Shown: one piece after another, positions 1,119 through 47,894 of the stretch
Position numbering within the stretch: the stretch's first letter is position 1
How the letters are laid out: every line of letters begins with the position of its first letter
Assembly: GCA_037200925.1 (NCBI GenBank)
Contig: JBBCGO010000001.1
Span: 447,698 to 511,697 of the forward strand
DNA length: 64,000 nt
Reading direction: 5' to 3'
Source: Candidatus Doudnabacteria bacterium
GTDB taxonomy: Bacteria; Patescibacteriota; Doudnabacteria; UBA920; O2-02-FULL-48-8
The notes under the pieces: model-generated
What the model was told of the DNA's origin: nothing
The model's input: the letters and a program-made list of their open reading frames with translations, nothing else
The model's database searches: none
Translations under genes and position numbers: made by a program

Positions 1119-1129
1119 AACTAATTAAC

Positions 1130-3371: not shown

Positions 3372-3372
3372 A

Positions 3373-4961: not shown

Positions 4962-4966
4962 AAATG

Positions 4967-9526: not shown

Positions 9527-9536
9527 TTTATTGGGA

Positions 9537-9716: not shown

Positions 9717-9952
9717 AGTTAATTACTATACACCATCTGTCCAAAATTGTCAATAATTGTCCAATTTGTCCAGCAACCGGCCGTGATACTAATATTTGCT
9801 ATAAAAACCGTATTGAATTGAGACCGATATTTACTATGCCTTAGTGTCATTCCTGACAGCAGTATTTGCGTAATACTTAGGGCGGGTGGATTTGAGATGA
9901 ATTTATGATTTGGTTGCTTGTTACTGATAGAAGCGGATGATACTAATAATTG

Positions 9953-11098
9953 CTAAAATAAACTCTGTTGTTTCTGACTGGATTTTGGATTGATTCCAAA
10001 TTCTTGCAAGACAAAATTTAGGACTGCCCCGTCAGGAACATTCAGCTCTATCCCCCTAACCTCAATGTCCTTTATCTCTTTAAGGCGTCTGAAATAGGTG
10101 CTGCGAGAGCCAGTGGTTTGCTTAAGATGATTCTTTAGCCCTGCCCAACCTTCCAGCCTTAAAACTCCTACAGCTTGGTATAGCTGTGCCTTAAGTTTTC
10201 CGTCACTATAATTCTTTTCGATAAAATCCTTGACCTGTTGGTTAAGCTGCCTGTAATCATAATCCTTTGAAACAACCAAACCATTCAAGGGATGATTAAA
10301 TATCTGGTCAACTTCGTGCTTCAATAGATCATTGGCAATGTTATACTTGAAAACTTCTGCCAAGGTAAAATTCTTTTTTGACGGATAAAACTTAGATAGG
10401 AATTGTCTGACTGAAGTTACATTGTGCAGGGTCAATTCAAACCTAAGAATAGATTCCTTATTATCGGCCAGCTTTCTGTGAATTTCTTTTTCTTCTTTGG
10501 TAAAACCCTGATCCAGCAAACTCTGAATTTGGTCATAAACCACAAAATGCGACGACGTCCTATTGAAGTATTCAAGATGGGTTAACTGACCATTAGGATT
10601 AAATTTTGGTTCAAATGACGAACGAAATCGGTATTTAGAATGAGCTAAAATTGCCAAAGCTTCTTCGGTGGTGCCGAAGGCTTTCACGTTGAGGTTCTTA
10701 CAATAAGAGACCATCGTTACTACTCCGTCCCTAACACTATTTCGAGAAGCCGATACCTTGATTGAAGCTAAAAAACTTATGATTGAGTCAATCAGAACTT
10801 CAAGATCAGCTTCGGATATTTCATAATAATTCTGGCCGTATTTGAGTTTGGGCAAAGAAACCTCGAGGTATAAATAATTATTACCTCGATTAAAACTGCT
10901 TTGGTGTGTCCAGTATTTCATAATGTAAATGCCCTTGGCTTGCTGGGATTTACGAAATTGGTCGCTGGTATGAATTAACTTTTTAATTCTTTTCTTGCCG
11001 TTCTTATCGTTGTCAAAACTCCCCTTGGCATCCTGAAAATAAGGGTTGTTTTCAACCGAATGAAAATTTGAAATTCTGATTCTTACGCTATCAATCAT
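9953..11098 (-). CDS. Putative rolling-circle replication initiator (Rep_trans-like)
   Basis: HFVVYDQIQSLL...ILRFELTLHN resembles the Rep_trans core (catalytic YDK followed by RxExR). The N-terminus IDSVRIRISNF resembles IDxLRFTF. The call rests on these weak motifs plus context only. Confidence 0.45.
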   Translation of the reverse strand: MIDSVRIRISNFHSVENNPYFQDAKGSFDNDKNGKKRIKKLIHTSDQFRKSQQAKGIYIMKYWTHQSSFNRGNNYLYLEVSLPKLKYGQNYYEISEADLEVLIDSIISFLASIKVSASRNSVRDGVVTMVSYCKNLNVKAFGTTEEALAILAHSKYRFRSSFEPKFNPNGQLTHLEYFNRTSSHFVVYDQIQSLLDQGFTKEEKEIHRKLADNKESILRFELTLHNVTSVRQFLSKFYPSKKNFTLAEVFKYNIANDLLKHEVDQIFNHPLNGLVVSKDYDYRQLNQQVKDFIEKNYSDGKLKAQLYQAVGVLRLEGWAGLKNHLKQTTGSRSTYFRRLKEIKDIEVRGIELNVPDGAVLNFVLQEFGINPKSSQKQQSLF

Positions 11099-11121
11099 AG
11101 AGGGGGTTTTTTAAGAGATGG

Positions 11122-11304
11122 TTAAGTCGCCACCCTGGTCTTAGGAGAACCCCCTCTAAGAGTTGAACCTACAGCCAAGGTAGCAGCTTTACTATCCCTG
11201 TTCTTAATAACTTGTTTTTGCCAGTAATTAAAGAAGTATCTGGCTAAGGCGTCAGACACAGCTTCTTTGTTTTCTTTGGTTAGTTTTGTTCTATGATTTG
11301 TCAT
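11122..11304 (-). CDS. Hypothetical small protein
   Basis: 60-aa ORF, no recognisable motif. Confidence 0.3.
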   Translation of the reverse strand: MTNHRTKLTKENKEAVSDALARYFFNYWQKQVIKNRDSKAATLAVGSTLRGGSPKTRVAT

Positions 11305-11409
11305 TTTTTTGAAACAAAAACAGCCCCATCAGGGCTGTTCTCGTAAGAACAGATTCTAATGGGGCTTCGTAAAGCCTAAGCCACAAAGTCTCGTAAGGCC
11401 TTATGACAC

Positions 11410-12207
11410 TTATTTGTCGGGGATAATTTTCAAATCCTTTGGGATTTGGAGGGTCTCGCTACACTTGCTACATTTATGCGTTCCTCTCATAAAGTGAGAC
11501 ATATCTTCAATTTTGAAGATCAGGTTGCCGCATTTGCTACAAACACAATTCGCACTCTTAATTCTTGGTGAAATTATACCTTCTTTGATGTAGTTGTCAA
11601 CTTGTTTCTTAAATCTTTCCTCAACTTTAAGGGATATATCGTCGGCCAAATTATCAAATCTCTCTTTTAAAGCCATCACGGCCGACCTGACTTCAAATGC
11701 AGGCGATGGAGATGGGCTTGGTGAGTAAGATGGCGATGGTGAAAACGAAGGAGATAAACTGATCTGTTCGACGGTAAGACCAAAATCATATTTTTTATTC
11801 AGAGAAACAACACTACTAATAACTCGGTCACTGGCTTCGGTCAATCTTATTGTAGGTTCAGTTAAGGTGGCAAAATTAGTGGTCAACTGTTGTATTGATG
11901 ATACAACCTTTCCAGCCTGAATAAATACGGGAGAATGAGCTAAATCAGTCAACACTTTTGCGGAATTATTTAGGTCAATCAACATTCCATTATTAACTGT
12001 CATAACCGTGCCTAAATTTGCAAGATTCTGGGTTGCCAAGACTAGGCTAGGAGAATGGATCGTTTCTGCTAATGCCCTTGCCGACCTGGTTATATCAGTA
12101 ACAATTGCATCGTTGATCGAAGTTCCAATAATAGCAGAGACTGGTGCTGGTTTTTTCAAATCAACTTCGTCTTTTTTCTTGTTTTGAGGGGGTTTAGTGT
12201 CGGACAT
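11410..12207 (-). CDS. Hypothetical protein with an SP-repeat linker and a C-terminal Cys4 zinc ribbon
   Basis: SPSFSPSPSYSPSPSPSP repeat. CSKCGN...HKCSKCSETL at the C-terminus. A hairpin plus T-run terminator at 11305-11345 read on the minus strand. Confidence 0.5.
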   Translation of the reverse strand: MSDTKPPQNKKKDEVDLKKPAPVSAIIGTSINDAIVTDITRSARALAETIHSPSLVLATQNLANLGTVMTVNNGMLIDLNNSAKVLTDLAHSPVFIQAGKVVSSIQQLTTNFATLTEPTIRLTEASDRVISSVVSLNKKYDFGLTVEQISLSPSFSPSPSYSPSPSPSPAFEVRSAVMALKERFDNLADDISLKVEERFKKQVDNYIKEGIISPRIKSANCVCSKCGNLIFKIEDMSHFMRGTHKCSKCSETLQIPKDLKIIPDK

Positions 12208-12366
12208 TACTTAGAGGGGTTTATATGCATCAATATATTAACAAAAAACAGGCTTGCCGCCTATTTCAAATTTTGGAATCGCATAGTAAAGGATGTTAGA
12301 ACTCAAATATATACTACACAGAGTGCTTAAAACTACCCTAGAATATTTTAGGAGTTATAATTATTT

Positions 12367-12654
12367 TCAGTCCTCTAACCATTTATTTTTTTGAATGATC
12401 CCAATAAAATATGCGGTTGCGTGTGTTGCAAGTGTAAGTCCAGTCTTACTTAACCCGTCCCAATCGCCGATAGAAATAAAGTGATAAGCCATTATTATAG
12501 CCCAAAGCAATACTATCGCTGGTAAGACATAAATAACACAAATCAAAACATTATTTACTGCGTTTAATGCAGTTTGTTTCCGTCTATGACTTTGTGAAGC
12601 ATCATCAGCTTCCAAATCAGCCTCTGTTGCAACATTTTTGCCTTTCCTTTTCAT
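12367..12654 (-). CDS. Small membrane protein
   Basis: Two hydrophobic helices. Stop/start abuts the ImmA gene. Confidence 0.45.
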   Translation of the reverse strand: MKRKGKNVATEADLEADDASQSHRRKQTALNAVNNVLICVIYVLPAIVLLWAIIMAYHFISIGDWDGLSKTGLTLATHATAYFIGIIQKNKWLED

Positions 12655-12655
12655 A

Positions 12656-13168
12656 TTAGACTATGGTTTGCCCTAGTAAGAATCTTGCTCTCAATGTTGC
12701 CGCAGATTCTGAAACCTTAAATTGCTCTGCAACTTCCGGCAAACTAATAGCATTTTTCCAAACCCTTAAAAATAAGTCTTTAGGCATCAGTAAATCAGCC
12801 GCCATATTATTGGCTTCAATTTCGATCTTTTTTTCAGCGTCTGTTAACTCTCTGCCCTCTTCGCTATTAAGTGCCTTAACAGGTTGTTTAATATTATCAA
12901 TATGTTCATTATTTGTATCAAAAAGATGTTTATGTTGAATGAAATGAGCTATTTCGTGAGCAATTGTAAAACGCTTCCTTGTTAACGGGTGAGAAGTGTT
13001 AATGTAAATAACAAAGTTGTCGCCCTCTTTGCTCAAAGAACCAGCATAATTATCATCTAATTCGCTGGTTTCTACTACATATAGACCTAATTCTTTTGCC
13101 AAATCAACAATAGGCACAGGATTTTGCTGAGCATATTTTGCTAAGATTTGTTCGGTTTTTTGATCCAT
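12656..13168 (-). CDS. ImmA/IrrE family metallopeptidase (DUF955)
   Basis: HEIAHF (HExxH) at the expected position. Family typical of prophage/ICE regulation modules. Confidence 0.8.
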   Translation of the reverse strand: MDQKTEQILAKYAQQNPVPIVDLAKELGLYVVETSELDDNYAGSLSKEGDNFVIYINTSHPLTRKRFTIAHEIAHFIQHKHLFDTNNEHIDNIKQPVKALNSEEGRELTDAEKKIEIEANNMAADLLMPKDLFLRVWKNAISLPEVAEQFKVSESAATLRARFLLGQTIV

Positions 13169-13297
13169 ACTTTTTAGAAAATAATGCCTAATTCTATACT
13201 ACCACACCCTCTGGGTAAAGTCATTGGATAAAATGAGCCTTGCATTCTTCAATTGAAAACCTAAATTACCCAGCTTTAATTTATAGAAAATAAATTT

Positions 13298-13372
13298 TGG
13301 GGTGCCAGACGAGAATCGAACTCGCGTGACCGCTGCCACAGAGCGGCGTTCTACCATTGAACTACTGGCACC
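13298..13372 (-). tRNA. tRNA-His (anticodon GTG) with encoded G-1 and CCA
   Basis: Hand-folded cloverleaf: 8-bp acceptor including G-1:C73. Anticodon stem CCGCU/AGCGG with loop CUGUGGC. T-loop TTCGATT. 3' CCA encoded. Confidence 0.85.
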
Positions 13373-13450
13373 ATAACAATTTAATTACACTACTTGCTAC
13401 ACATCATAATGGCCACATCCTAACAGTTTAATTTGCTTCCACATTGGAAA

Positions 13451-13525
13451 GTCAGCGGCCGAGCGGAATCGGACCCACGTGACAGCTGCCACAGAGCTGC
13501 GTTCTACCATTGAACTACGGGCACC
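13451..13525 (-). pseudogene. Degenerate tRNA-His(GTG)-like copy. The 5' ~47 nt are near-identical to the intact tRNA-His. The 3' half is divergent with a poor T-arm and acceptor and no CCA.
   Basis: Alignment with 13298..13372: 3 substitutions in the 5' 47 nt versus about 9 in the 3' 25 nt. The T-stem pairs only 3/5. Confidence 0.5.
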
Positions 13526-13588
13526 TCGTCTCAGTTTGTAGACACTTCGCGATTTTGCTTCGCAAAATACGCTACGGTCTACACGCTG
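13526..13588 (-). promoter_or_regulatory. Conserved structured tRNA 5'-leader element, copy A (tRNA orientation is the minus strand)
   Basis: About 85-90% identical to copies at 19008..19081 and 38495..38567. Contains a TTTTGC-GAA-GCAAAA hairpin and an outer GYAGAC/GUCURC stem with compensatory changes. Confidence 0.6.
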
Positions 13589-13651
13589 CTCCTCTCAAAA
13601 AATTTGTTCTCGGCCTTCGGCCTGCGACTCAAATTTTTTGTGGTTTAAAAG

Positions 13652-19081: not shown

Positions 19082-19157
19082 GGAGTGGTAGCTCAACTGG
19101 TAGAGCAGTTGCCTCTTAAGCAATTGGTTCTGGGTTCGAGTCCCAGCCACTCCACCA
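19082..19157 (+). tRNA. tRNA-Lys (anticodon CTT)
   Basis: Acceptor GGAGTGG/CCACTCC. Anticodon stem GTTGC/GCAAT with loop CTCTTAA. T-arm CTGGG-TTCGAGT-CCCAG. CCA encoded. Confidence 0.9.
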
Positions 19158-19160
19158 CAA

Positions 19161-19197
19161 AAAATCTCATTCATTTTGAATGAGATTTTTTGTTATC
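19161..19197 (+). terminator. Rho-independent terminator after tRNA-Lys
   Basis: 13-bp perfect stem aaaatctcattca/tgaatgagatttt with a 3-nt loop, followed by a T-run. Confidence 0.7.
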
Positions 19198-19218
19198 AAA
19201 ACATAATCAATAGAAATC

Positions 19219-19590
19219 TTATTGCCGAAAACGATAGTATAGCCAAGCTATGACCGCGATCAAACCCAATGTTCCCACGATCAGCAATATCCAATACAGC
19301 AGAACCGGTTCAGTGGATGGGGCAACCAAGTTCACTGCCGGCACGCCGACCGGAACCGGTTGAACCTCGGGCGTGGGGCTTGGTGATGGCGCCGATATTT
19401 GCTTTTGGTCAAGCGCCTGGGTTTGATTGTAAGTGCTGTCAGGGCTATTAACACTCTGGCTGTAGTTTGGCGCTGTGTTTTGCGGGATAGGCTGCAAAGG
19501 CGTGCCTATCGGGACCATGCGGGCGGCAATTGATGGCCTGGCGAAAAACAAAACTGCCAGCAAGATTGAAAAAAATATTTTTTGCTTCAT
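19219..19590 (-). CDS. Secreted Pro-rich protein with a signal peptide and a C-terminal TM anchor
   Basis: N-terminal signal-like KIFFSILLAVLFFA...A. C-terminal LLYWILLIVGTLGLIAVIAWLYY. Confidence 0.45.
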   Translation of the reverse strand: MKQKIFFSILLAVLFFARPSIAARMVPIGTPLQPIPQNTAPNYSQSVNSPDSTYNQTQALDQKQISAPSPSPTPEVQPVPVGVPAVNLVAPSTEPVLLYWILLIVGTLGLIAVIAWLYYRFRQ

Positions 19591-19593
19591 AAA

Positions 19594-20982
19594 TTAATCG
19601 GAGTCCCAGCTTATTTGCTGATAGCCGTTCACGGATAAAGGAAAACTCGGCGGCGGACCGTAGAGAAGATTGGAATCATATACTGTGTTGGTCGTCAAGT
19701 ATCCGGAGAGCAGACCTCCGGCCCCGTTGACCCAGCTCCAGGTCCAGGTGCCGTAGCTTGAGATAGATCCGTAGATCGTGATGGAATTCTTCATATCGCC
19801 CGCAAAATAATACCGCTGCGTGCTGCCGTTTTGCGCGATCATGGCCGCATCAACCTCAAGGTTCGTGGGGGCAAAAAAAGTCACCAGCACATCCTGCTGT
19901 GCGATCAGTCCCAATTCCGAACTGCCGTCTTTCGCGCTGTAAACAAGATTATTCGGGATGAGGATGCTGGGTGCGGTTGGCGCATTATAGGGCAAGCTCG
20001 CTGCTGCCACCATGGCGCGTCCCGCCACAGTCCCCTCAACCCAGGTCCTGTCCTCTACATATATAAGGCCGTTTGTCGGGATCGCCTGAGTGAATTGCAG
20101 GGTCCGGGCATTGTAATCAAGGTCCTCATTGTGCGCAGCGTTATTGACATCATACCCTGTTGCATGAGCTCTCAGGGAAGTTACCTTATAAACGCTTACC
20201 GTGCCAGTGGCATTGAACACAAGCGAGTAGCCCTGAGCGTTTGAAGGCGGCAGATAAATTCCGCCGGCTTGCGCGCCGCTTTTGATGGTCGCCAGATCAG
20301 AGGTAATGGTGGAAAAATCCACGCTCGGCAGAGGGAACTGAAAAAAATTCTTCGTAGCCACAGCAGCTGCTCCCCAAACTCCATTTTCGATTGCAGGACA
20401 AGGAGGAGAACCGGACCAGGCTTGGCAGGTATAGGTCTGCTTGGCGGAAGTGATCGGGGCATTGCCAATCCCGTCAAACCTTATTCCGCCGTTACTGTGC
20501 AGCGCGCCTGATACGCTCTCGGTGGGGCCTATCCAAACGTCGGAATTGGTCAAAAAAGCATATTTGGCCAAAGATGGTATGCCGTACTTCGTGGTAACCG
20601 TACGTTTAACAGAAGGATTTGTCAAAGTGTAAGCTGTGGATTGGATCGTAACTATGGTGGACCCTGCCGGAGGCGGCGTTATGGTCAGGCTGTATCTGCC
20701 GATGACCTGGTTGGTGTCCTTATCCAGATAATCGTGGACATACGGGCCGGGAGAATTAGTGCCGTCTTTGTAATCAACCGGAAAATGAACCAAATGCCAC
20801 TGGTAATAATTGTTCCCCGCCTCCGCGATCTGGAATGCCTGCTCGCGGTTGACCGTCGAACGTATGGCTTTCAGCTCATAAACCGAATAGCTTATCACTG
20901 AAACCATGAGTGTTGAAAAAATGAAAATGATCACGAGCTCGTAAATGATCACAACGCCGGATTGATTCGTCTTTTTGTTCAT
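19594..20982 (-). CDS. PilX-like type IV pilus minor pilin/assembly protein
   Basis: N-terminal TM followed by REQAFQIAEAG (PilX_N-like). Confidence 0.6.
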   Translation of the reverse strand: MNKKTNQSGVVIIYELVIIFIFSTLMVSVISYSVYELKAIRSTVNREQAFQIAEAGNNYYQWHLVHFPVDYKDGTNSPGPYVHDYLDKDTNQVIGRYSLTITPPPAGSTIVTIQSTAYTLTNPSVKRTVTTKYGIPSLAKYAFLTNSDVWIGPTESVSGALHSNGGIRFDGIGNAPITSAKQTYTCQAWSGSPPCPAIENGVWGAAAVATKNFFQFPLPSVDFSTITSDLATIKSGAQAGGIYLPPSNAQGYSLVFNATGTVSVYKVTSLRAHATGYDVNNAAHNEDLDYNARTLQFTQAIPTNGLIYVEDRTWVEGTVAGRAMVAAASLPYNAPTAPSILIPNNLVYSAKDGSSELGLIAQQDVLVTFFAPTNLEVDAAMIAQNGSTQRYYFAGDMKNSITIYGSISSYGTWTWSWVNGAGGLLSGYLTTNTVYDSNLLYGPPPSFPLSVNGYQQISWDSD

Positions 20983-21652
20983 CAGCTTCCTAAATTAGTT
21001 TTAAGATTGCGGATCGCCCCGCTGGCCGTTTCGGTATAGGTTCCGCTGGATCCTACCCCGGCCTTTTTAAATATGGTCAAATTGATCTTGACCAGTTTGA
21101 CGGCTGTGACATTCAGCGGCTGGACCAAAGGATTTTCAACCACTCCGGAATATGTGCCGTCATAATAATAGAAAATCGGATTTGCGCCGTTAGCCACATC
21201 TTTCTGTACCAAATTCACAGTTTCACCGCCAAGATTATAGAGCAAAGGATTTCCGGTAGGCTTGGTGACTCCTTTATACAAAGCACCGGCTTGGAGGAAA
21301 TACCGGATCCGGTTGACGCTGCCTGCCGCATTTGGAGGAAATACCGGATCCGGTTGACGCTGCCTGCCGCATTGGTATAAAAGATCAGCTGTTGAGCTGT
21401 CGCTGATTCCAGCGCGTATCCTCCGGTGTCTGAAGTTGTGGCATCGCGCAATTCCTGGATCAGCGTAAAAGCTACGCGGCGGGCGCTGTCATTATTGGCA
21501 AGCAAACTTCCTTGCAGCGAGCTGTTCACAAGCACAGAGGAAACCAAGGCTACTATCCCGTAAGCGATGATGGAAAAAATTGCAACGGAAATCATCACTT
21601 CTATCAGCGTGAATCCCTTTTCTTGTTCTCTGTTGGATGTTATCTGTTTCAT
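20982..21652 (-). pseudogene. Type IV minor pilin gene (prepilin N-terminus KGFTLIEVMISVAIF), split into ORFs 21215..21652 and 20982..21281 by a 41-bp tandem duplication
   Basis: Deleting one 41-nt unit puts the two ORFs into the same frame (21652-41=21611, same residue mod 3 as 21281). Confidence 0.6.
21291..21372. repeat. Perfect 41-bp tandem direct duplication (2 copies: 21291-21331 and 21332-21372)
   Basis: ttggaggaaataccggatccggttgacgctgcctgccgcat appears twice, head to tail. Confidence 0.95.
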
Positions 21653-21654
21653 GC

Positions 21655-24084
21655 TTACGGGCTCATCAATACCTGGATCGACTGATTACCAGAAATATTA
21701 AGACTGTTCACCGAGAATGGCTGATAACCTGGTAGTGTCACGTCCAAACTATAATTATTGTCAGCGGTTAACCCGCCAAAGCTTGTTTGTCCGGGGGTTG
21801 CGCAGCCGGAAACATAATTGATCGCAACACTTGTCAAAACCGGAGTTTGCAGGCTATCAGTCGTGGCCAGAAATGCTTTATACCGGATATAGCGGTCGTT
21901 ATTGTGAATGCTTGCAATGTTGGTTCCTGAAACGGTGTAGTAAGTTCCTGCCGTGCCGTCAGGCCCCATAAAATTCCAAGTGGCGTTATCGGAATTACTG
22001 GCGATCTGGAACTTGAGGCTGGTTGCCGGGTTTTGGGAAGTCGGGTTCCAGGTCAGAGTGGTAAAATTTGAAGCGCCGCCGGTATCGAACGTGGAAGAAA
22101 CCACTTGCCCGGAAGCTACATAATTCCCTGAAATATTTTTCAATCTGATCCCGGTCGGCAGAGAGCTGTTGTCAATATTTCCGTCATCGGCAAAGTAGCG
22201 GGTCGCAGCCGCAAAATCAGTCTGCCCCGGTCCGCCCGTCCAGTCGCTTTGCACCCAAACGCTGCCGCCCGTGGTCCCGTTAAAATCCTGAGGAGTCGCG
22301 CCGCCTCTGTGCAAATGCACACCCGCCCCTGCAAGCGCATTGCCCGTGCCTGAATCCTTTACGATCACCAAAAGGCTGTTCGCAGTCTGAGTTCCCAGGA
22401 TCATGGTGAACGTCTGGTTGGCTGCCGGCAGCACGCTGATCTGCTGGATGGGCGAAGTGCCGACTACCATCAGATTCTGGCCGGTAAGCAGGGTCGGGGT
22501 GTAGTTGTCCCATTCCAAATTATTCAGAGCGATCAATCCTGCCGAAGAAGTCAGGTTATTGTTGTATTTCAGAACATTCGGGGTAAGGCCGATCAATTTT
22601 GCCCCTGTCAGGTTTACTCCGACATTGCTTAGCGCGCTGCAGGTGGAAGGACCGCTGGCACCGAGGGTAATGGTATCGGTGTCCAATGTCACAGCGCCGT
22701 TGCGTGCGAGCATCCGGCCGCTAACATTGACGCCGGTCGTAACTGTAATGGATGTTAAGGCCAGGACATTTCCTGCGAAGTTGGAAAAAGTTCCAAACGT
22801 TGCTGAACTGCCGACCTGCCAGAAAACATTGCAAGCCTGAGCGCCGTTTATGAGACTGACGCTGCTCGCCCCTGCCGTGATAAGGGTTGATGCAGCTTTG
22901 AAAATAAACACCGCATTCGGATCGCCTTGGGCATTAAGCGTCAGAGTTCCGGTGATCCCAAAAGTTCCGGAAGCGGAATCATATACCCCTGCTGTCTCTG
23001 TAGTTCCGCCAAGTTCTGTGGGAATTGTAGAAGTAGTAGATTGTCCTGCAGCATTATTATAGGCTGCGACGAGGTCTGTTTTCGCTTGAGCAGCCGTTGA
23101 ATCAGCCACATGCTGTGCCCCATTGACCGTGCCGGGGGGAAAGCCGGTAACTGAAGTGCCGGGACTTAAGCCCAGATCCCCGTTGATGCCGCTGGAACCG
23201 GTATTGGTTATGGTCGAGCCGGCCAAAACCGCAAAACTGCCGGCAGTTCCCAGATTTACTTGCGCAGCGCCGCAGGTGGAACCGGTGGCGCCGAGGGTCT
23301 TGATGGTAAGTTTGCTGAACAGATCAATAGAAAAACTGACTAACGTCACCTGGCTGTTGACTATAGTCGGGTCAGGTTTGGTCGGGTTGGGATTCGCTAC
23401 CGTTATCGGGTAAGTCTGGTCGGTAGAGTATCCTGCTTTCGTTACTACAATATGATAGATGTTCACTCCGGGGGGCAAGCCAACTTCCACCCAGTTGCCG
23501 GATGAATCAGTAGTGCGGTCGAGGATTATTGTTCCGGCAATGTTCTGGATATGGACGGATGCTCCGGCAATTGGTTGTCCTGTTGCGTCAAAAGCTTTGA
23601 TCCAAAGCGCGCCGGCATTGACAGTGCCTTCGAGACCAAAAGGGGTGATGTTGCTTGAAAAAGATCTGACCACACCGGTAGTCATATTTTGTATGTTCAG
23701 CTTCACCTGTTTATAATCATCCGGAGCGGCATCAGTGCCCAAAAGAACCGTGCCATCTGCCGGATCATCCACAAAAGTCACTTCATAATAGACCTGATAA
23801 TTAATACCTTCGATGACGATTGTCGCGGGCGTTACGTCATCGGGCAAAACACCAATCGGATTGCCGTGCGCTGTTCCGACCTGGCTATAAGCCAGGTTTC
23901 TGACCACTTCCAGATAATTGGTTGCAAGGCTCGCTATCGTAGTTTGTTCCCGGGAGGCCCGAACGCTCCTTGTCATAACCGAAACAAGACCGATCACTCC
24001 GACCAGCAGAACCGCAAATATGGCTATCGCCACCACCATCTCAATTATCGTAAATCCGTAGCTATTTTTTTTAAATTTAAGCAT
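21655..24084 (-). CDS. Large type IV pilin-like protein (809 aa) with an ice-binding-like DUF3494 domain
   Basis: Prepilin N-terminus YGFTIIEMVVAIAIF. Central SFAVLAGSTITNTGSSGINGDLGLSPGTSVTGFPPGTVNGAQHVADSTAAQAKTDLVAAYNNAAG matches the DUF3494 signature. Confidence 0.75.
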   Translation of the reverse strand: MLKFKKNSYGFTIIEMVVAIAIFAVLLVGVIGLVSVMTRSVRASREQTTIASLATNYLEVVRNLAYSQVGTAHGNPIGVLPDDVTPATIVIEGINYQVYYEVTFVDDPADGTVLLGTDAAPDDYKQVKLNIQNMTTGVVRSFSSNITPFGLEGTVNAGALWIKAFDATGQPIAGASVHIQNIAGTIILDRTTDSSGNWVEVGLPPGVNIYHIVVTKAGYSTDQTYPITVANPNPTKPDPTIVNSQVTLVSFSIDLFSKLTIKTLGATGSTCGAAQVNLGTAGSFAVLAGSTITNTGSSGINGDLGLSPGTSVTGFPPGTVNGAQHVADSTAAQAKTDLVAAYNNAAGQSTTSTIPTELGGTTETAGVYDSASGTFGITGTLTLNAQGDPNAVFIFKAASTLITAGASSVSLINGAQACNVFWQVGSSATFGTFSNFAGNVLALTSITVTTGVNVSGRMLARNGAVTLDTDTITLGASGPSTCSALSNVGVNLTGAKLIGLTPNVLKYNNNLTSSAGLIALNNLEWDNYTPTLLTGQNLMVVGTSPIQQISVLPAANQTFTMILGTQTANSLLVIVKDSGTGNALAGAGVHLHRGGATPQDFNGTTGGSVWVQSDWTGGPGQTDFAAATRYFADDGNIDNSSLPTGIRLKNISGNYVASGQVVSSTFDTGGASNFTTLTWNPTSQNPATSLKFQIASNSDNATWNFMGPDGTAGTYYTVSGTNIASIHNNDRYIRYKAFLATTDSLQTPVLTSVAINYVSGCATPGQTSFGGLTADNNYSLDVTLPGYQPFSVNSLNISGNQSIQVLMSP

Positions 24085-24089
24085 TATGT

Positions 24090-24434
24090 TTAAGGCGAAT
24101 ATTTGAAGGGGTCGGGGTTGGTCAGCGTCAGGCCTGCGGGCTGGAAGCTGTCCAATGCATCAAGGAACTTGGAGACGTCGCTTAGTGAAGTGCGGTTGAT
24201 TCTGACAATGCTGTTATTTTCCGAGACCTGCGGCTGAGGCGATAATTTGGTGTACAGCAAAAAGTAAGCCAGGTAGGCCTCGATCAGGATCACCACGACC
24301 AGGATCAGGGTGGTAACCATGCGGATGCTGATTTTTTTGGGTAAAGCAAGTTTCATATCAGGGCTTGGGTCTCTGTACAAAAAATACGGCATTAATAGCG
24401 CCTGTAAGATCCCCCGAGTGGACGACCTCTCCAC
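24090..24434 (-). CDS. Small membrane protein in the pilus operon. Probable start at MKLALPKK, near 24357.
   Basis: TM segment TTLILVVVILIEAYLAYFLLY. Overlaps the upstream pilO-like ORF. Confidence 0.4.
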   Translation of the reverse strand: MERSSTRGILQALLMPYFLYRDPSPDMKLALPKKISIRMVTTLILVVVILIEAYLAYFLLYTKLSPQPQVSENNSIVRINRTSLSDVSKFLDALDSFQPAGLTLTNPDPFKYSP

Positions 24435-24969
24435 TGCCTGCGGTAGCGGTATCAGAGGTAGCGGCGCTGACGGTAAGTTTGCTGACCTCGGAAAAATTCG
24501 GCAGGTGCTCTATATATTGAAGGAAAGTGACCAGAGAGGTGAATGTGGATGAAATACTGACCGTGTAAGGGATCTCTTCTATGTCCGGGTTCCCCGTTAT
24601 GATCTGCTTGGCCGTGGTATCCAAGGTCTGGTCCGTCGAATTCAGGGGTTCCTGGATCGTCATCCCTTCCTCGGTATTGGATGCCAGCGCCGCGGCCTCG
24701 ACCTCCTGTATCGCCGTCTGCAGATTGTCGCGCGGCAAAATGCTGTTTTGGATCTTGTCGGTATTGGAAACCGCGCTCAGATCCGATTGGGAATTCTTAT
24801 AGGCTATGATCTGGTCCGAAAGATTATTCAGCTGCGTCTGTTTTGCTATGCCGGCATTATACAGATCGCCGACCTGATTCAAATTCGGGCGGATGAGAAA
24901 AGCAAAGATAATGACGCTGACAATAAAGCCGCCGACTGAAATTAAAATCAATTTGGTGAAAATTCTCAT
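24358..24969 (-). CDS. pilO: PilO-like pilus assembly protein
   Basis: N-terminal TM plus coiled-coil architecture. Position between pilN and the pilins. Confidence 0.55.
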   Translation of the reverse strand: MRIFTKLILISVGGFIVSVIIFAFLIRPNLNQVGDLYNAGIAKQTQLNNLSDQIIAYKNSQSDLSAVSNTDKIQNSILPRDNLQTAIQEVEAAALASNTEEGMTIQEPLNSTDQTLDTTAKQIITGNPDIEEIPYTVSISSTFTSLVTFLQYIEHLPNFSEVSKLTVSAATSDTATAGSGEVVHSGDLTGAINAVFFVQRPKP

Positions 24970-25523
24970 GGGCTGTTGATCTTGTCGTTGTTTACAAAAA
25001 AAGTAAAAGTAAAATTGGCGGTTGTGGCCCGCTCAAGGTTTGAAAGCGGAAAATTTATGCCGTGAAAAAAACCTGATTTTATTATGCTGGTCCAAAGCGC
25101 AATCACATCTTCGCGCGTTTTGGCTTGGCCCGCGATATCAACCCTCCCCGTTTCCCGGTCAAGGATTATCTGGTTCAGCTGAACAGTCGTGGGAGTCAGG
25201 TTCGCCAGAGCGATCAGGGCGTTTGACCAGTAGTAATGATGGGATTTAAGATTATTGATCTCTTTGACGCTGTTGTTCAAAGCCAAAACCTTGTCCTGCA
25301 GGCCCTTATAGTCAGCGGAATTAAGAATAGCCATGTTTTGAGCGATCTGATCGTCCGTCTGAGAATTGCTTCTCATAAGATAGATCCTGGTTCCCACCGC
25401 CAGCCCCAAAAAAACCAGCAGGCTTAGCGTAAGCCATGTCCAAAACATGAACAGCCTGCCGAACAGGAACTCAAATGTGACTTCTTTTTGCGCGTCTTGG
25501 GGCAGGAGGTTGATTATTTTCAT
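24966..25523 (-). CDS. pilN: PilN fimbrial assembly protein
   Basis: N-terminal INLLP motif plus TM. Confidence 0.7.
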   Translation of the reverse strand: MKIINLLPQDAQKEVTFEFLFGRLFMFWTWLTLSLLVFLGLAVGTRIYLMRSNSQTDDQIAQNMAILNSADYKGLQDKVLALNNSVKEINNLKSHHYYWSNALIALANLTPTTVQLNQIILDRETGRVDIAGQAKTREDVIALWTSIIKSGFFHGINFPLSNLERATTANFTFTFFVNNDKINSP

Positions 25524-26608
25524 ATGCTGTATTCGTTAAAGTTGACTCCGCGCAAAGCCAGGCCGATGACCGTGGTGTAGCCTAAGGCGGAAAGCCGGTC
25601 AAGCGGTACTGGGATCTTCGGGTCAACTGCAACATTCGCCCACGGATCGGCCAGAATGACTTTGGCCGCAGAGCGGACCGACCCGAGGTTCAGCCGGTCG
25701 GAAATATATTCGGCAATTCCGGTCAATTTAGCCGAGCCTCCGCAGAGCAGGATCGTATCAATGCTTTTGTGGGTTGTTTCGTGTTCTTCAAAGAACCTGA
25801 TGACATTTTTTATCTCATCCACGAGGTTGTCCAGGATCGGCAGGATCGCTTTGCGCACTTCCAGCCCTTTGTCGCCGGTCAAACCCAGCTCCTGTTTCAT
25901 TTTTTCGGCTTGCGGCGCCGTGACTCCGAGATTTCTGGAAATGCTTTCCGTAAACGCGTTGCCGGCGATCGGAATGCTGGAAGTGTACTGGATGATCCCG
26001 TTGTCCACGATGATAAAACTGGTCAGCTTGGTTGCCGGGTCCACGATCAAAACGCTTTTGGTCGCAAGGTCTCGGCTGATCAGAGCTCTGGCCGTCGCCT
26101 GCGACTCCAGCTCCATGGCCACCGGCACGAGTTTGGCTTTTCTAAGCGAAGAAACAAGCGCGTCTATATAATCTTTGGGAGTGGCGTGCGCCAAAACCTC
26201 AAGTTTGTCTCCCCCATCCTTGATGATCTGCCAGTCAAGGTAAACCTGGTCCACAGGCACCGGAATATCCTGTTCAAGTTCGAACGGGAGCGCGGTCCCG
26301 ATCTCGCTTTCCGCCATTTTGGGAATTGTCAGGGTGCGCACAAATGATTTGGCTTCCGGAACGGAACAGACCACGAACTTGGTGTCTATCTTGCGCGCCG
26401 CCGCAATCGCGCGGAGGATATTGTCCGCCAGCCGGTCTTCGCTGATGATCATGTGATTATTGACCACCTGTTCGGACAGCGGGGAATCGGTAAAAGGTAT
26501 TGACGCCAAACGGCCGTGCGCATAGACCAGCTGCATGACTTTGATGGAAGAATCGGAAATATCCAGGCCGAATGCTTTGATTTTTTTACTGCTCAAAAAT
26601 GAGAACAT
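25520..26608 (-). CDS. pilM: PilM actin-like pilus assembly protein
   Basis: Actin/FtsA-like fold motifs. Operon position. Confidence 0.8.
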   Translation of the reverse strand: MFSFLSSKKIKAFGLDISDSSIKVMQLVYAHGRLASIPFTDSPLSEQVVNNHMIISEDRLADNILRAIAAARKIDTKFVVCSVPEAKSFVRTLTIPKMAESEIGTALPFELEQDIPVPVDQVYLDWQIIKDGGDKLEVLAHATPKDYIDALVSSLRKAKLVPVAMELESQATARALISRDLATKSVLIVDPATKLTSFIIVDNGIIQYTSSIPIAGNAFTESISRNLGVTAPQAEKMKQELGLTGDKGLEVRKAILPILDNLVDEIKNVIRFFEEHETTHKSIDTILLCGGSAKLTGIAEYISDRLNLGSVRSAAKVILADPWANVAVDPKIPVPLDRLSALGYTTVIGLALRGVNFNEYSI

Positions 26609-26656
26609 TTTATTTCAGGATCAAACGATGACTTGTAGAAATTATAGCACTTAATA

Positions 26657-27868
26657 TTAACTTATGCTTGAACTAATATTGTAGATCGGCATGATCAAAG
26701 CCACGGCCAAAAATCCGACCGCTACCCCCATGACCATCATGATCAGCGGCTCCAGAATTGACGACAGGTTTTTCATGGTCTGGTCCACTTCCTGCTCGTA
26801 AAAATTCGCCACTTCCTCAAGCACCACGTCCGTGGTGCCCGATTCCTCCCCGACTTCCATCATCTGGATCACCAGGTTGGAAAATAATTTCGGCTCTTTT
26901 TTGAATGCCGTTGTCAAAGGAGAGCCGATCTTCACTTTTGACGCCGCATCAAGAATGGTCCGTTGGTAATAAATATTGCCGACGACGTTCGAAGAAACTT
27001 CCAGCGCCTCGACGATGGTCATGCCGCTTTTGATCAGCGATGCGAACACGCGGACAAACCTCGCCAGATTGATCTTGATCACAATGCCGGAAATCACCGG
27101 GGTATAAAGCACTAATTTGTGAAGAACTTTTTTGCCGCCCATGGTCGAGCGCCAGTAAAAAAACCCGGCCACGGCCAGAACGGTGCCCAATAAAATAAAT
27201 ATGCCGTAGTGGGCAAAAACATCGACGAGCCCGATGACGATCCTCGTCGGGAGCGGCAATACGACGTTCAGGTCCGTAAATGTCGAGGTCAGTTTCGGCA
27301 GGACAAAGGTCAGCATCAGATAGCCGACAATGGCCAAAGCGATCAGGACCATGATCGGATAGGTCAGGGCTCCCCGGGCTTTGGAAACCAGGTCATAATC
27401 CCTCTGCATCTGCTCGGCCAGATATGTCAGATTTTGTTCGAGGTTGCCCGACATTTCCCCGGCCCGCACCATGCTCACGAAAATTCCGGAAAATACATTG
27501 GGGTATTTCGCCATGGCATCGGCCAGTGAAGTGCCGCTCTCAACCTGCGCAGCAACCTCGTTCACGATCTTGGCAAACCTCGGATTGGGCGTCTGTGCGG
27601 CCAGGACCTTCAGCGACCTGGTGGCCGGAAGACCCGCCTTGATCATGACCCCGAGATTTTTGATGAACGTGATGCGGTCAATGAGTTTGATGGGGCGGAA
27701 GATCTGGAACAAATGGCCGATATCAAAAGCCTGGTGAACCGCCTTGATCGATGTCGGCAGCAGGCCCTGGGCGCGCAAAGCGTCAACCACAGCCCGTTCG
27801 TTCATGGCCTGCATTATGTCTTTTTGGATGACGCCCGCTTTATTCCGGGCGGTGTATTGGAAATCCAT
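26657..27868 (-). CDS. pilC: Type IV pilus platform protein PilC (GspF family)
   Basis: Two GspF repeats. Three TM segments. Confidence 0.85.
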   Translation of the reverse strand: MDFQYTARNKAGVIQKDIMQAMNERAVVDALRAQGLLPTSIKAVHQAFDIGHLFQIFRPIKLIDRITFIKNLGVMIKAGLPATRSLKVLAAQTPNPRFAKIVNEVAAQVESGTSLADAMAKYPNVFSGIFVSMVRAGEMSGNLEQNLTYLAEQMQRDYDLVSKARGALTYPIMVLIALAIVGYLMLTFVLPKLTSTFTDLNVVLPLPTRIVIGLVDVFAHYGIFILLGTVLAVAGFFYWRSTMGGKKVLHKLVLYTPVISGIVIKINLARFVRVFASLIKSGMTIVEALEVSSNVVGNIYYQRTILDAASKVKIGSPLTTAFKKEPKLFSNLVIQMMEVGEESGTTDVVLEEVANFYEQEVDQTMKNLSSILEPLIMMVMGVAVGFLAVALIMPIYNISSSIS

Positions 27869-27875
27869 ATCAGGA

Positions 27876-27909
27876 AATTTCTAAATTACTAAAATTCCAA
27901 GTTCTAAAT
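27876..27909 (-). promoter_or_regulatory. Conserved 34-nt element, 7 nt upstream of the pilC ATG
   Basis: aatttctaaattactaaaattccaagttctaaat (plus-strand reading). About 30/34 identical to 29732..29764 upstream of pilB. Confidence 0.5.
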
Positions 27910-27973
27910 TTTTGTTGATTAGGCATTAGTAATTTTTTAGAAATTATAATTTCAGAACTTCAGTCATTTTTTT

Positions 27974-29722
27974 TTACTCCCTGCTCACTCTCACTATCTC
28001 CTCTATCGTCGTCTTGCCTTGCAGGCATTTGATGAATCCGTCCTGCCACATCAGGATCATCCCTTCCTCCACGGCCTTTGCCTCCAGCTGGCTGGTCGGC
28101 GAGCGCTTCATGATCAGGTCCTGGACCATAGTGGAGATCTCCATCACTTCATAGATGCCCTTGCGGCCGCGGTAACCCGAATGCCCGCACTTATCGCATC
28201 CTTTTCCGTGAAAAAAAGTCAGTTCCATCAGGCCGGTTATTTTCTCGTCAATGAATTTCTCGCGCTTGAGGATGGCCAGCAGGGCCGGGACGTCATAATC
28301 TTTTTTCAGAGTTTCTTCAAGCTCCGCGTCAATTTTGATCTCTTCCTTGCAGTCGGGGCAGATCTGGCGGGTCAGGCGCTGGCCGACCACGACGTTGACC
28401 GTGGACGCGATCAGGTACGGCTCCACGCCGATATCCAAAAGCCTCGGCAAAGCTCCTGCCGCATTGTTCGTGTGCAGGGTGGATAGCACGATGTGCCCGG
28501 TCAATGCCGCGTGCACGGATTCCTCGGCGGTCTCAGCATCTCTGATTTCCCCGATCATGATGATGTTCGGGTCCTGCCGTAAGAGCGCCCGCAAACCCAT
28601 GGCAAAGGTCAGGCCGATCTTGGGACTGACCTGCGTCTGGTTGATGCCTTCTATGCGGTACTCTATCGGGTCCTCGATGGTGGCAATGTTCACACTCTTA
28701 GTATTCAGAAGCGACAGGATAGAATACAAGGTCGTGGATTTTCCGCTGCCCGTGGGCCCGGTGACCAGCAGAGCGCCATGCGGCTTCTTCACGTTCCTCA
28801 TAATGACCTCGTAATTGCGCGCGATAAATCCGAGTTCCTCCAATGTCATGGCTTTCGTGGACTCGTCGAGCAAGCGCATCACGACCTTCTCGCCGTCAAA
28901 CACGGGGATGGTGGATACGCGCAAAGAGATATTGTAATTCTCCTTCGCAACCTTGAACCGGCCGTCCTGCGGCAAACGGTGCTCGTCTATCTTGAGGTTG
29001 GCAATGACCTTGATGCGGGCGATCAGCGCCGGCTGGATGATCTTCGGCAAGGTCATGACATCATGCAGCACGCCGTCAATCCGATACCTGACCATGACCT
29101 CTTTTTCCTGCGGCTCTATATGAATGTCCGATGCTTTTTCAAATATCGCGTATTCCAGCAGAGTATCCACCACGCGGACCACGGGAATTTCCTCCGCCAT
29201 TTCTTTGAGCTTTTCCGTGACATTCTCCGTGCCGGCCGCGCCTTCTTTTTCCTGCTTGGTGATGATCTTGGCAAACTCCGCCTCAAGACTCGTGTGGTAC
29301 TGCTTCAGCCCGTAGTCCAAAGACGCTTTGCTGATGAGAAAAGGCACGATCTGCAGGTCGGTCGTCTTTTTTATGGAATCCCGGGTCTCCAGATCATCCG
29401 GGTCCGTCATGCCCACGTTCAGCTTGCCTTTCTCGCTGCCGAAAGCGATAACCTTATGCCTGCGAGCTATCGGCTCCGGCACCAAAAGCAGAACTTCTTT
29501 GGGTATCTGGCCCATGTCCGTCAGGTTCTTGTATTCCACATCGAAAAATCCGGCGATGATCATGGCCAGTTTTTCTTCGTCAATGATCTTTTTCTCAACC
29601 AGAAGGTCGTTCAGCTCGCGCCTGCCTGCCACAGCTTCTTTTTCTAAAGTTGTAAAAGCCTCAGCAGTGGTGAGTTTTTGGGCCACCAGGCTCCGCTTCA
29701 ATTGTTCTGTGTCAAAAGCCAT
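27974..29722 (-). CDS. pilB: Type IV pilus assembly ATPase PilB (GspE family)
   Basis: Walker A GPTGSGKSTT. MIGEIRD. C-terminal tetracysteine. Confidence 0.9.
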   Translation of the reverse strand: MAFDTEQLKRSLVAQKLTTAEAFTTLEKEAVAGRRELNDLLVEKKIIDEEKLAMIIAGFFDVEYKNLTDMGQIPKEVLLLVPEPIARRHKVIAFGSEKGKLNVGMTDPDDLETRDSIKKTTDLQIVPFLISKASLDYGLKQYHTSLEAEFAKIITKQEKEGAAGTENVTEKLKEMAEEIPVVRVVDTLLEYAIFEKASDIHIEPQEKEVMVRYRIDGVLHDVMTLPKIIQPALIARIKVIANLKIDEHRLPQDGRFKVAKENYNISLRVSTIPVFDGEKVVMRLLDESTKAMTLEELGFIARNYEVIMRNVKKPHGALLVTGPTGSGKSTTLYSILSLLNTKSVNIATIEDPIEYRIEGINQTQVSPKIGLTFAMGLRALLRQDPNIIMIGEIRDAETAEESVHAALTGHIVLSTLHTNNAAGALPRLLDIGVEPYLIASTVNVVVGQRLTRQICPDCKEEIKIDAELEETLKKDYDVPALLAILKREKFIDEKITGLMELTFFHGKGCDKCGHSGYRGRKGIYEVMEISTMVQDLIMKRSPTSQLEAKAVEEGMILMWQDGFIKCLQGKTTIEEIVRVSRE

Positions 29723-29731
29723 AAGATAAAA

Positions 29732-29764
29732 AATTCTAAATTACTAAAGTCCTAAGTTCTAAAT
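29732..29764 (-). promoter_or_regulatory. Conserved 34-nt element, 9 nt upstream of the pilB ATG
   Basis: aattctaaattactaaagtcctaagttctaaat. See 27876..27909. Confidence 0.5.
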
Positions 29765-29807
29765 AATCTCGCAACCCTGAACTTGGTATCGAAACCCTGA
29801 ACTTGTT

Positions 29808-30110
29808 TCAGGGTCTCTTAATAAAATCGTCATATACATCTTTCCATTCCGGATTATCTTTTTCTATAAGATTTATCTTCCATTGCCGATGCCAATTTTT
29901 GATCTGCCGCTCTCTTTCAAAGGCCTGTTCGATTGTCTCACATGGTTCATAGTAGACCAGTTTGTCAAGATTATATTTTTTCGTGAATCCCTCCACTAGT
30001 TTTTCTTTATGCTGCCAAATTCTTTCCAATCCTATGCCGGTGGCTCCTGTATAAAGAACTGTATTCATCTTGTTGGTTAATATATAAACTCCCGGTTCTT
30101 TTTCTTGCAT
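29808..30110 (-). CDS. GIY-YIG nuclease family protein (YhbQ/UPF0213-like)
   Basis: VYILTN...LYTGATG...R...H; about 100 aa. Confidence 0.8.
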   Translation of the reverse strand: MQEKEPGVYILTNKMNTVLYTGATGIGLERIWQHKEKLVEGFTKKYNLDKLVYYEPCETIEQAFERERQIKNWHRQWKINLIEKDNPEWKDVYDDFIKRP

Positions 30111-30330
30111 GTATCCAAAGATGCTGAAACGAGTTCAGCATTGCGGTATGGGTAATTTCCTATTTGAACCTTGAACCTTGAAGTTTATTTCTGTTGGACT
30201 TTGGACATTGGTCATTTGGTTTTCTTTTAGCCCCTTTTATTGGTATTTTTTATTTCTAAAACTAAAAAATGTGCCATCATTATAGCACATTCAGTCAAAA
30301 AATCAAAAAAATAATTAACCTCTTTAGTAA

Positions 30331-30390
30331 CTCCCCCTTCCTCCGCCCTCTTAACTAGAAGAGGGCGGGGCAGGGTGAGGGGAGTTAAAA
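30331..30390. repeat. Solo nested-palindrome element of the DUF559-flanking repeat family
   Basis: taactcccc...ccgccctctt-aactag-aagagggcgg...gggtgaggggagtta. Confidence 0.6.
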
Positions 30391-30419
30391 TTAAGCGGCG
30401 GAGGAGTTACGGGATACGG

Positions 30420-32003
30420 CTACTGCGCTATTCCGCCGTCATCATAGGAAGCAAGATCAGAACTGCTCAACCGAATTATCTTATTCAGCGACAGCTTCAT
30501 GTTCCGGAATACCGCCATAGACGGTATTCCGAGTTTGGCATCACCCGAAACTATATAAATAGTGGACCCGCTGTCGCGGATGAGAGTGTTGTCAGGATAA
30601 CCCATGGCCCGTCCCAGGTTATCAGCAGTCATCACATCAGAACCGATGATCTGAACGTCGGAAAATTTCAGCCCGCGCGACAGGAACACTGATCCTGAGG
30701 TGAACGGCCGGAATTTTCCGTCGGATGCCATGAACACGGTTTTGATATCATCAGCTTTGACCAACATACCGTCAGCAGATGTTATCGCGCCCAAAACCTG
30801 GCCTGGGGCTGGAACTATGACAGGAGTCGCAGCCGAAGCTGGAGATGGAGTCGAAGCTGCCACGGGAGGCAAAATACCGTTCCCGCTGCCGCCCCCTCCT
30901 CCTCCGCCACCGCCGCCGCCGGAAATAATATTTGCGGCAAAGCTTGCGGCGATCGTGTGATCTAACTTAACGCTACTGAATGTGTAGCTTGCGACTGCGC
31001 CGACAGAAACGCCGTCAGCCAGAACATCGGCCACATGAAAACCGGAACTGGGACTGATAGTGAAAGTTTGATCCATGCTATCATTGACCGAGACCGGACC
31101 GACAGGAGAAATAGAGCCATTCGTGTCAGCTGCAGCTGTGATAGTATGCGCTAATTGCGAAGAAGAAAGAGTGAGATTATCGAACAGGAAACCTTTGCCC
31201 AGATCTGCCGCAGTTGCAGCGCCGCTTTCGCGGAATTCAACTGTCTTGATGATGCGCGGAGTGGGTTCAGTCGCAGATTCGCTGTCAAACACATAATAAT
31301 TCTCCCAGCTGGTGCCTGTGTGGACAAGTGCTCCGTCAATATATACTTTCACAATATCATTGGACGGGCCGTCCAGCATATCCATCGTAAGTTTTATCGT
31401 ATGCGGCGACGTCCTTGTCAGGTCCGTTGCAATTTGAGTCTCCACAAAATTAGCCGGGTTTGTAGCGCCCTGCACATCGTCAAAGAAAACATTGATGCCA
31501 GCTGTGCCGTCTTCAAACCGCAGATAGCTCATGCGCGAGCCGTCCCCGCGGTCAGGCGATAATGAAACATGCAAACCGGGCTGCATAGCAGCTTGCGTTG
31601 AAGCCATATCAAACTGCATTTCAAAATGATTTTGTTTGGTTCCCACAGGAAATGCTCCGTTAGTAGAAGCAGTCTCCCCTACAGAGTCAGCCAAAGGCTT
31701 GGCAAATGTCTGGTCGCCGAATCCGCCTGAGGTCACAGCGTCCGAGATGCGGAAGGTTTGAGTGCCGAAAGATGCATAGCCGTACGTGTTCGCAACCACT
31801 GACTGATCATATGCTCCGATAGCTTTCCAGCCGTCCTGTGCGTTGATGGTTCCGGGTGCATAAGTTTCAAAATTAATGGCATTGCTGTCTGCATGCGATC
31901 TGTTCGCCGCAAAAAAACCGCCTAGGACCAATGCGGCGATGCTGAAGACGCTGATGCTAATTCTCAAAGACCGGGTTTGGGTTGTCATTTTGTTTGCTTT
32001 CAA
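30420..32003 (-). CDS. Secreted protein with a signal peptide, a poly-Gly linker and a C-terminal domain of unknown function
   Basis: Signal-like N-terminus. GGGGGGGGGGGSG run. Confidence 0.55.
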   Translation of the reverse strand: MKANKMTTQTRSLRISISVFSIAALVLGGFFAANRSHADSNAINFETYAPGTINAQDGWKAIGAYDQSVVANTYGYASFGTQTFRISDAVTSGGFGDQTFAKPLADSVGETASTNGAFPVGTKQNHFEMQFDMASTQAAMQPGLHVSLSPDRGDGSRMSYLRFEDGTAGINVFFDDVQGATNPANFVETQIATDLTRTSPHTIKLTMDMLDGPSNDIVKVYIDGALVHTGTSWENYYVFDSESATEPTPRIIKTVEFRESGAATAADLGKGFLFDNLTLSSSQLAHTITAAADTNGSISPVGPVSVNDSMDQTFTISPSSGFHVADVLADGVSVGAVASYTFSSVKLDHTIAASFAANIISGGGGGGGGGGGSGNGILPPVAASTPSPASAATPVIVPAPGQVLGAITSADGMLVKADDIKTVFMASDGKFRPFTSGSVFLSRGLKFSDVQIIGSDVMTADNLGRAMGYPDNTLIRDSGSTIYIVSGDAKLGIPSMAVFRNMKLSLNKIIRLSSSDLASYDDGGIAQ

Positions 32004-47835: not shown

Positions 47836-47894
47836 ACGAAAAAGACTAGGCCTAAACCTAATCTTTTCTATTTTCTACTTACTATTTTCTTCTC

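Follow-up and report, generated by a model that had tools for sequence, protein, structure and literature searches.

The pilus locus of a Candidatus Doudnabacteria bacterium carries, in its deposited sequence, a perfect tandem duplication within a putative minor pilin gene, and the question posed by this locus is whether the duplication is the fixed state of the organism, a mutation borne by part of its population, a switch that turns piliation on and off, or an error introduced between the cell and the database. The window analysed here is a single stretch of 64 kb, and the coordinates given below are positions within it unless otherwise indicated. The features at the site are as follows:

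21291..21331, minus strand: first copy of the 41-bp unit, reading TTGGAGGAAATACCGGATCCGGTTGACGCTGCCTGCCGCAT on the plus strand (string comparison, TRF)
21332..21372, minus strand: second copy of the unit, identical to the first (string comparison, TRF)
20982..21652, minus strand: the whole disrupted gene, a putative GspJ/PilW-like minor (pseudo)pilin (repaired ORF, N_methyl motif, AF2/Foldseek)
21215..21652, minus strand: truncated ORF of 145 aa, GenBank MEJ0021477.1 (GenBank annotation)
20982..21281, minus strand: orphaned 3' half of 99 aa, corresponding to native residues 111-209 and listed mechanically from a TTG

A perfect 41-bp tandem duplication at 21291-21372 had been described in the earlier note, and both methods confirm it: in a direct string comparison 21291-21331 and 21332-21372 are identical units arranged head to tail, and TRF returns one array (21291-21373, period 41, 2.0 copies, 100% matches, no indels). 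The junction between the copies reads GCCTGCCGCAT immediately followed by TTGGAGGAAATACC, and on the coding strand the first copy runs from the last two nucleotides of codon 94 through codon 107. Identity extends by one further base only, the T at 21373, which leaves the duplication with a register ambiguous by 1 nt and with 1 nt of microhomology at its ends; this provides no positive signature of slippage. No further copy of the unit is present on either strand of the 64-kb window at up to three mismatches (0 of 100 shuffles gave any match), which excludes a dispersed or mobile repeat, and a scan of JGI metagenomes for the unit gave 0 matches. The window contains no second perfect tandem duplication, and TRF over 20000-23000 finds no repeat other than the two copies of the 41-nt unit. 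A hairpin-driven origin was also considered and is uninformative: the unit contains a 12-bp palindrome, ACCGGATCCGGT, of a kind expected about 16 times by chance per 64 kb (an arithmetic estimate), and the DNA fold z-score of -3 reflects mainly the pairing between the two palindrome copies of the duplicated sequence. Elsewhere in the window, a 24-bp tandem repeat (59889-59964, 3.2 copies, 92% identity), its period divisible by 3, lies within a 419-aa ORF (59403-60662), and a 23-bp repeat is present in 2.1 copies at 36797-36844.

As 41 is not a multiple of 3, the duplication shifts the reading frame, as had been pointed out from the letters of the DNA. Deletion of one unit fuses the two minus-strand ORFs, 21215..21652 and 20982..21281, into a single ORF of 630 nt (671 nt with the duplication) that encodes 209 residues; the predicted fusion into a prepilin gene of about this length is thus borne out, and its N-terminus, EKGFTLIEVMISVAIF, harbors the class III signal motif G-F-T-L-I-E with a glutamate at +5. 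In the duplicated form, the frame shifts after Gln107: MEJ0021477.1 consists of native residues 1-107 and 38 out-of-frame residues ahead of a premature stop, 102 native residues are lost, and the orphaned frame 20982..21281 is absent from the gene calls of the source record. The missing part would comprise five of the eight β-strands predicted in the model described below (110-116, 131-136, 147-150, 173-181 and 191-199) and includes a near-invariant R-N-L-K-T-N-L motif (R201 to L207). Programmed ribosomal frameshifting past the duplication was dropped as a candidate; it would need a +1/-2 shift, and nothing points to a recoding signal.

Homologues of the 209-aa protein are numerous, with 150 database proteins matching at E ≤ 0.001. 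Among the 120 matches listed, nearly all are 191-263 aa long and cover 89-100% of the query, the exceptions being the truncated 145-aa product itself (P0038) and a few shorter entries. In an alignment of 24 sequences, a conserved block (R-I-R-Y-F-x-Q-x-G-x-L-Y-K-G-V) crosses the duplication junction without a gap, and none of the 22 full-length homologues aligned has a duplication or indel at this site. In a larger alignment of 95 sequences, 17 of the 36 invariant or near-invariant positions fall past residue 107 and are hence lost in the frameshifted product. A scan of GTDB genomes located the gene in eight related Patescibacteria genomes; at all eight syntenic loci, it is one uninterrupted match lying between homologues of the same large (809-aa) pilin and the same 462-aa protein, in unchanged order. 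The named members of this globular-domain family and the genomes in which it was located all belong to the Patescibacteria, and the family has the C-terminal R-N-L-K-T-N-L motif as its own. Since homologues are full length, the conserved block is ungapped and conserved positions continue past residue 107, the comparison of these sequences identifies the single-copy gene as the ancestral, functional state. That the two ORFs might normally be separate genes, one of the observations that the earlier note had named as counting against its reading, can be discarded, as more than 100 full-length homologues and eight syntenic loci carry one gene.

Curated models recognize only the N-terminus of the protein. 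PF07963 N_methyl scores 32.7 bits (cutoff 21.2) and TIGR02532 scores 25.3 bits (cutoff 16.3), while TIGR01711 gspJ remains below its cutoff (18.4 bits vs 64.85) and covers residues 12-43 only; no curated Pfam or TIGR model matches the globular part, and a sequence-profile search of the PDB recovered pilin N-terminal helices only. Assignment to a named minor-pilin family by sequence was thus abandoned and a structure search was needed, since sequence models match the N-terminal motif only. An AlphaFold2 (AF2) model built from the 95-sequence alignment (mean pLDDT 85.6, pTM 0.74) predicts a long helix (residues 16-69) followed by eight strands. The best PDB matches found by Foldseek are XcpW, EpsJ and GspJ (E 2e-4 to 4e-3), and the best ten comprise these proteins and a Thermus type IV-like pilin, with a probability of 1.00; TM-scores over these ten are modest, ranging over 0.39-0.48 when normalised to the query and 0.43-0.61 when normalised to the target, the target-normalised values for XcpW, EpsJ and GspJ being 0.50-0.61. 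The signal motif and the long helix with a β-sheet body place the protein in the type IV pilin/pseudopilin superfamily. Like the GspJ/XcpW/EpsJ and PilW class, it combines the class III signal motif and Glu5 with a long N-terminal helix and a globular body of eight predicted strands, and its gene sits beside other minor-pilin-like genes downstream of PilB/C/M/N; unlike in GspJ, XcpW and EpsJ, its sequence similarity to the class is confined to the N-terminal motif. It is called here a GspJ/PilW-like core minor pilin by modelled fold and context, not by sequence model.

This context is a tight minus-strand cluster that runs from PilB through PilC, PilM, PilN, a gene in the position of PilO and a small ORF to the 809-aa prepilin, and that ends with the 809-aa prepilin, the 209-aa gene, the 462-aa gene and then a 123-aa ORF:

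27974-29722, minus strand: PilB/T2SSE
26657-27868, minus strand: PilC/T2SSF
25520-26608, minus strand: PilM
24966-25523, minus strand: PilN
24358-24969, minus strand: 203-aa gene in the PilO position
21655..24084, minus strand: 809-aa prepilin upstream of the gene, carrying N_methyl, CarboxypepD_reg and Ice_binding-like domains
19594..20982, minus strand: 462-aa gene downstream, which matches PilX_N weakly and below threshold and lacks a prepilin cleavage motif

The 209-aa gene is thereby flanked by the 809-aa prepilin and by the 462-aa protein with its weak PilX_N match, an order kept in the eight relatives; this context hints that the protein may form a priming tip complex with GspI- and GspK-like partners. 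The stop codon of the 809-aa prepilin lies 2 nt ahead of the start of the 209-aa gene, and the intact 209-aa gene ends in a stop codon that overlaps, as TGATG, with the start codon of the 462-aa gene. The premature stop of the duplication allele falls about 230 nt upstream of the 462-aa gene start; because ribosomes on this allele would halt at that distance from the TGATG overlap, translational coupling to the 462-aa gene would be lost. Consensus scans for an internal promoter or terminator that could rescue the 462-aa gene were not above shuffles.

Several observations concern the neighbours of the gene. Placed between the pilin N-terminus and the C-terminal part of the 809-aa prepilin is a full Ice_binding-like domain (PF11999, residues 286-473, E 1.4e-61); as the homologues in the related loci L006-L010 skip query residues ~282-481, the sequence of this domain looks like an insertion present in this 809-aa prepilin and in that of locus L005 only. 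In two relatives, some 860-900 bp of extra DNA separates the homologues of the 209-aa and 462-aa genes (L006 4024-4889; L007 2150-3054), while in the window and in the remaining relatives the two genes lie end to end or overlap. A small GIY-YIG domain ORF (29808-30110, minus strand) lies directly upstream of pilB; several ORFs of this kind (~86-100 aa) are scattered over the genome, with others at L013 535-801 and L016 5279-5566, and they may be homing-endonuclease-like or mobile genes. A tRNA-Lys(CTT) gene (19082-19157, plus strand) is found just downstream of the pilus cluster.

In comparison, the type IV pilus system of the Saccharibacterium TM7x (T4P-1/T4P-2, PMC11623550) is likewise encoded by T4aP-like loci of a member of the Patescibacteria, in which PilB/C/M/N/O are accompanied by several divergent minor pilins. 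Among the shared components are a large pilin that bears an accessory domain and a PilX-like protein devoid of a prepilin peptidase signal. The pilin genes of the machinery-linked locus one of TM7x were not deletable, the single minor pilins of its second pilus are dispensable, and pilin homologues across phyla reach only 10-25% coverage (PMC11623550). The present organism belongs to a different class, Doudnabacteria, and the likeness is one of the loci as a whole.

The hifiasm-meta assembler lays out individual corrected reads and is not known to take a consensus. MEJ0021477.1 sits on JBBCBH010000057.1, a 964,444-bp contig of GCA_037975565.1 that is 100% identical to the window. The window crosses the origin of this record, a record position being 34721 minus the window position, and the protein at window 38996-41266 maps to record 957,899-960,169; since the window wraps the record origin in this manner, the contig is circular. 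An 866-aa ORF (32759-35359, minus strand, no Pfam match) spans the boundary 34720|34721, window position 34720 being record position 1, and fits true circularity. [quoted passage not shown] Its relative abundance in samples 6/7/84/57 is 0/0/0/2.20% (PMC11613949 Table S8); as it is 0 in three of the four, all reads of the organism come from one sample.

These facts bear on the proposal that the duplication has a technical origin. An artefact produced by joining de Bruijn contigs, with a k of 41 or 42 and an overlap of k or k-1 left untrimmed, is rejected, as hifiasm-meta is an overlap/string-graph assembler, not a de Bruijn one, and was applied to HiFi reads of over 99% accuracy (PMC11613949). 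What is left is an error in a single SMRTbell molecule, made when the library was repaired or in CCS, or one made by hifiasm-meta where its layout joins two reads. No cell would then carry the duplication, and the organism would have the intact gene only; this we regard as possible, though less likely than not. The usual errors of HiFi reads are homopolymer indels, unlike a perfect duplication of 41 bp; moreover, the repeat is located about 13.3 kb from the record origin, away from the contig ends, and the library was made from 5 ug of DNA with no amplification step described (PMC11613949). On the other side, a coverage of 8.35 is low, so that one aberrant read could set the sequence of the contig, the microhomology is merely 1 nt, and the 209-aa gene is conserved and syntenic in all relatives; by analogy with the undeletable locus-one pilins of TM7x (PMC11623550), a null allele may also be strongly deleterious. 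To this is added the outcome of a comparison with an independent k-mer assembly of the same reads, which follows.

The exact 209-aa protein (P0001) is present in two other assemblies, a 13,037-bp contig (L001) that Logan assembled from SRR28211699, itself among the four input runs, and a 3,279-bp contig of GCA_015689235.1. L001 is 100.000% identical to window 19100-31652 over 12,512 bp, except that it has one copy of the unit instead of two. SRR28211699 yields two more Logan contigs, which match window 1-13617 (13,617 bp) and 46138-59918 (13,781 bp) at 100.000% identity; over about 39.9 kb, the k-mer assembly thus departs from the hifiasm-meta contig in the duplication only. Logan contigs with these exact proteins were found for SRR28211699 only, a run that appears to be sample 57, the one positive sample. 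Since an independent assembly of a run from this project gives a single-copy allele in otherwise identical DNA, the duplication is either very recent and not fixed or confined to one molecule.

How far a Logan contig can testify to single-copy reads depends on its construction. Logan uses k=31, drops k-mers seen once and simplifies its graph in the style of SPAdes with Minia3, and all 31-mers are distinct within the contigs of one accession (PMC12424806); such a contig can hence never display both copies of the unit. Each 31-mer of the single-copy allele also occurs in the two-copy allele, so that L001 is by itself no direct proof of single-copy reads. Both properties are what a different reading draws upon, namely that the two-copy state is the true, fixed sequence of a real pseudogene and that the single-copy contigs are collapse artefacts of de Bruijn graphs. 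Graph logic speaks against it: if all reads were duplicated, the 30 junction k-mers, at full coverage, would close a loop over the 11 intra-unit k-mers, at which the contig should stop; instead, L001 continues through the site, with flanks of 10.3 kb and 2.2 kb. A through-going single-copy contig would imply that k-mers of the junction were missing, occurred once or were several-fold scarcer than those of the flanks. The heuristics of Minia and SPAdes apply a four-fold relative-coverage cut-off to erroneous connections; with such a cut-off assumed, and at a coverage of about 8, this would mean roughly one or two duplication reads. The second assembly, GCA_015689235.1, also has the intact gene, and the intact form agrees with all homologues. 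A fixed pseudogene is thus very unlikely, and the duplication would not be fixed in the population. Of the two origins offered by the earlier note, an assembly or collapse artefact or a genuine recent duplication, the k-mer join or collapse is made unlikely by the use of hifiasm-meta, and the choice narrows to a minority allele or an artefact of a single read.

Two further observations were made in these assemblies. L001 ends within the tRNA-Lys(CTT) gene, at 19100, probably at a repeated k-mer. A DUF2779 gene (3373-4961, minus strand) is split into overlapping ORFs of 177 and 370 aa in both the window and the Logan contig L014, and is a single 529-aa gene in GCA_015689235.1, at the same position after a 1519-aa helicase-like gene; two A6 runs are located near the change of frame, and the split may reflect either a genuine change of frame or a homopolymer error common to both sequences.

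The explanation we favour, with moderate confidence, is a spontaneous 41-bp duplication carried by a minority of DNA molecules in one deadwood sample, possibly by one HiFi read. The repeat and its frameshift, the full-length homologues, an intact allele in further assemblies and the class of fold are shown; the minority status of the duplication, its origin in vivo and its phenotypic consequence are all inferred. Replication slippage or unequal exchange would have generated the tandem duplication within the GspJ/PilW-like minor pilin gene of a type IV pilus operon in this uncultivated bacterium, and the private variant of one read would have entered the deposited contig through the layout of individual corrected reads, the predominant allele in the population being the intact 209-aa gene. 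In a cell that carried the duplication, the shift after Gln107 would lead to a stop 38 codons further on with 102 residues gone, and translation of the downstream 462-aa gene would be uncoupled; the outcome would be a null allele, with which the pilus should be poorly primed or assembled. If real in vivo, the event is an ordinary one of a known kind, a loss-of-function mutation in a pilus gene.

It is in the nature of perfect tandem repeats to undergo precise deletion readily, and surface pili are common targets of phase variation. It can thus be asked whether duplication and precise loss of the unit toggle the minor pilin, and with it piliation, as a reversible on/off switch for bet-hedging, as with the capsule of Streptococcus pneumoniae. 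Many independent duplications of different lengths have reportedly been seen in that system. Its genes cap3A, cap8E and tts are, as cited in PMC4243769, governed by reversible intragenic tandem duplications (Waite 2001, 2003). The present locus resembles them in that a perfect tandem duplication within an ORF inactivates, here by frameshift, a gene for a surface structure; wild-type and duplicated alleles may also coexist here, since a two-copy hifiasm-meta contig and a single-copy Logan contig come from a read set that is clonal in other respects. It differs in that reversion and a high switching frequency were, according to the same citation, demonstrated experimentally for the pneumococcal genes, while a single event is observed here; the likeness is formal only.

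Simple-sequence-repeat contingency loci are built from long tracts of 1-9-nt units and slip at high rates. In common with them, the copy number of the repeat shifts the frame of a surface-structure gene here; unlike in such loci, the unit measures 41 nt, is present twice and occurs once in the ancestral gene. TRF finds 2.0 copies of 41 nt in place of many copies of a 1-9-nt unit, and recurrent copy-number variation is seen neither in the 22 homologues nor at the eight related loci, all eight of which are uninterrupted. There is no repeat tract or long microhomology to raise the forward rate, and the JGI metagenome scan for the unit was empty. A switch of this type is accordingly quite improbable, and the phase-variable pilus gene of the earlier note finds no support in two copies of a long unit with 1-nt microhomology and no recurrence. 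That both alleles coexist in vivo at appreciable frequency, duplication and excision acting as a reversible piliation switch in an episymbiotic Patescibacterium, is a very improbable conjecture; if true, the switch could serve escape from pilus-dependent phages or alternation between attached and free stages, and no earlier case would be known in which long reads directly revealed duplication-type phase variation in a CPR population that is uncultivated. The duplication would be of biological interest only if reads showed recurrent, reversible duplications.

With the minority spontaneous mutation as the preferred reading, the locus illustrates that low-coverage HiFi assemblies made without a consensus can fix private variants, and that such variants can be flagged when the same run is assembled independently from k-mers. 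In the deposited genome, described as 'nearly finished', the 145-aa MEJ0021477.1 most likely misrepresents the organism, the predominant allele encoding an intact 209-aa GspJ-like minor pilin.
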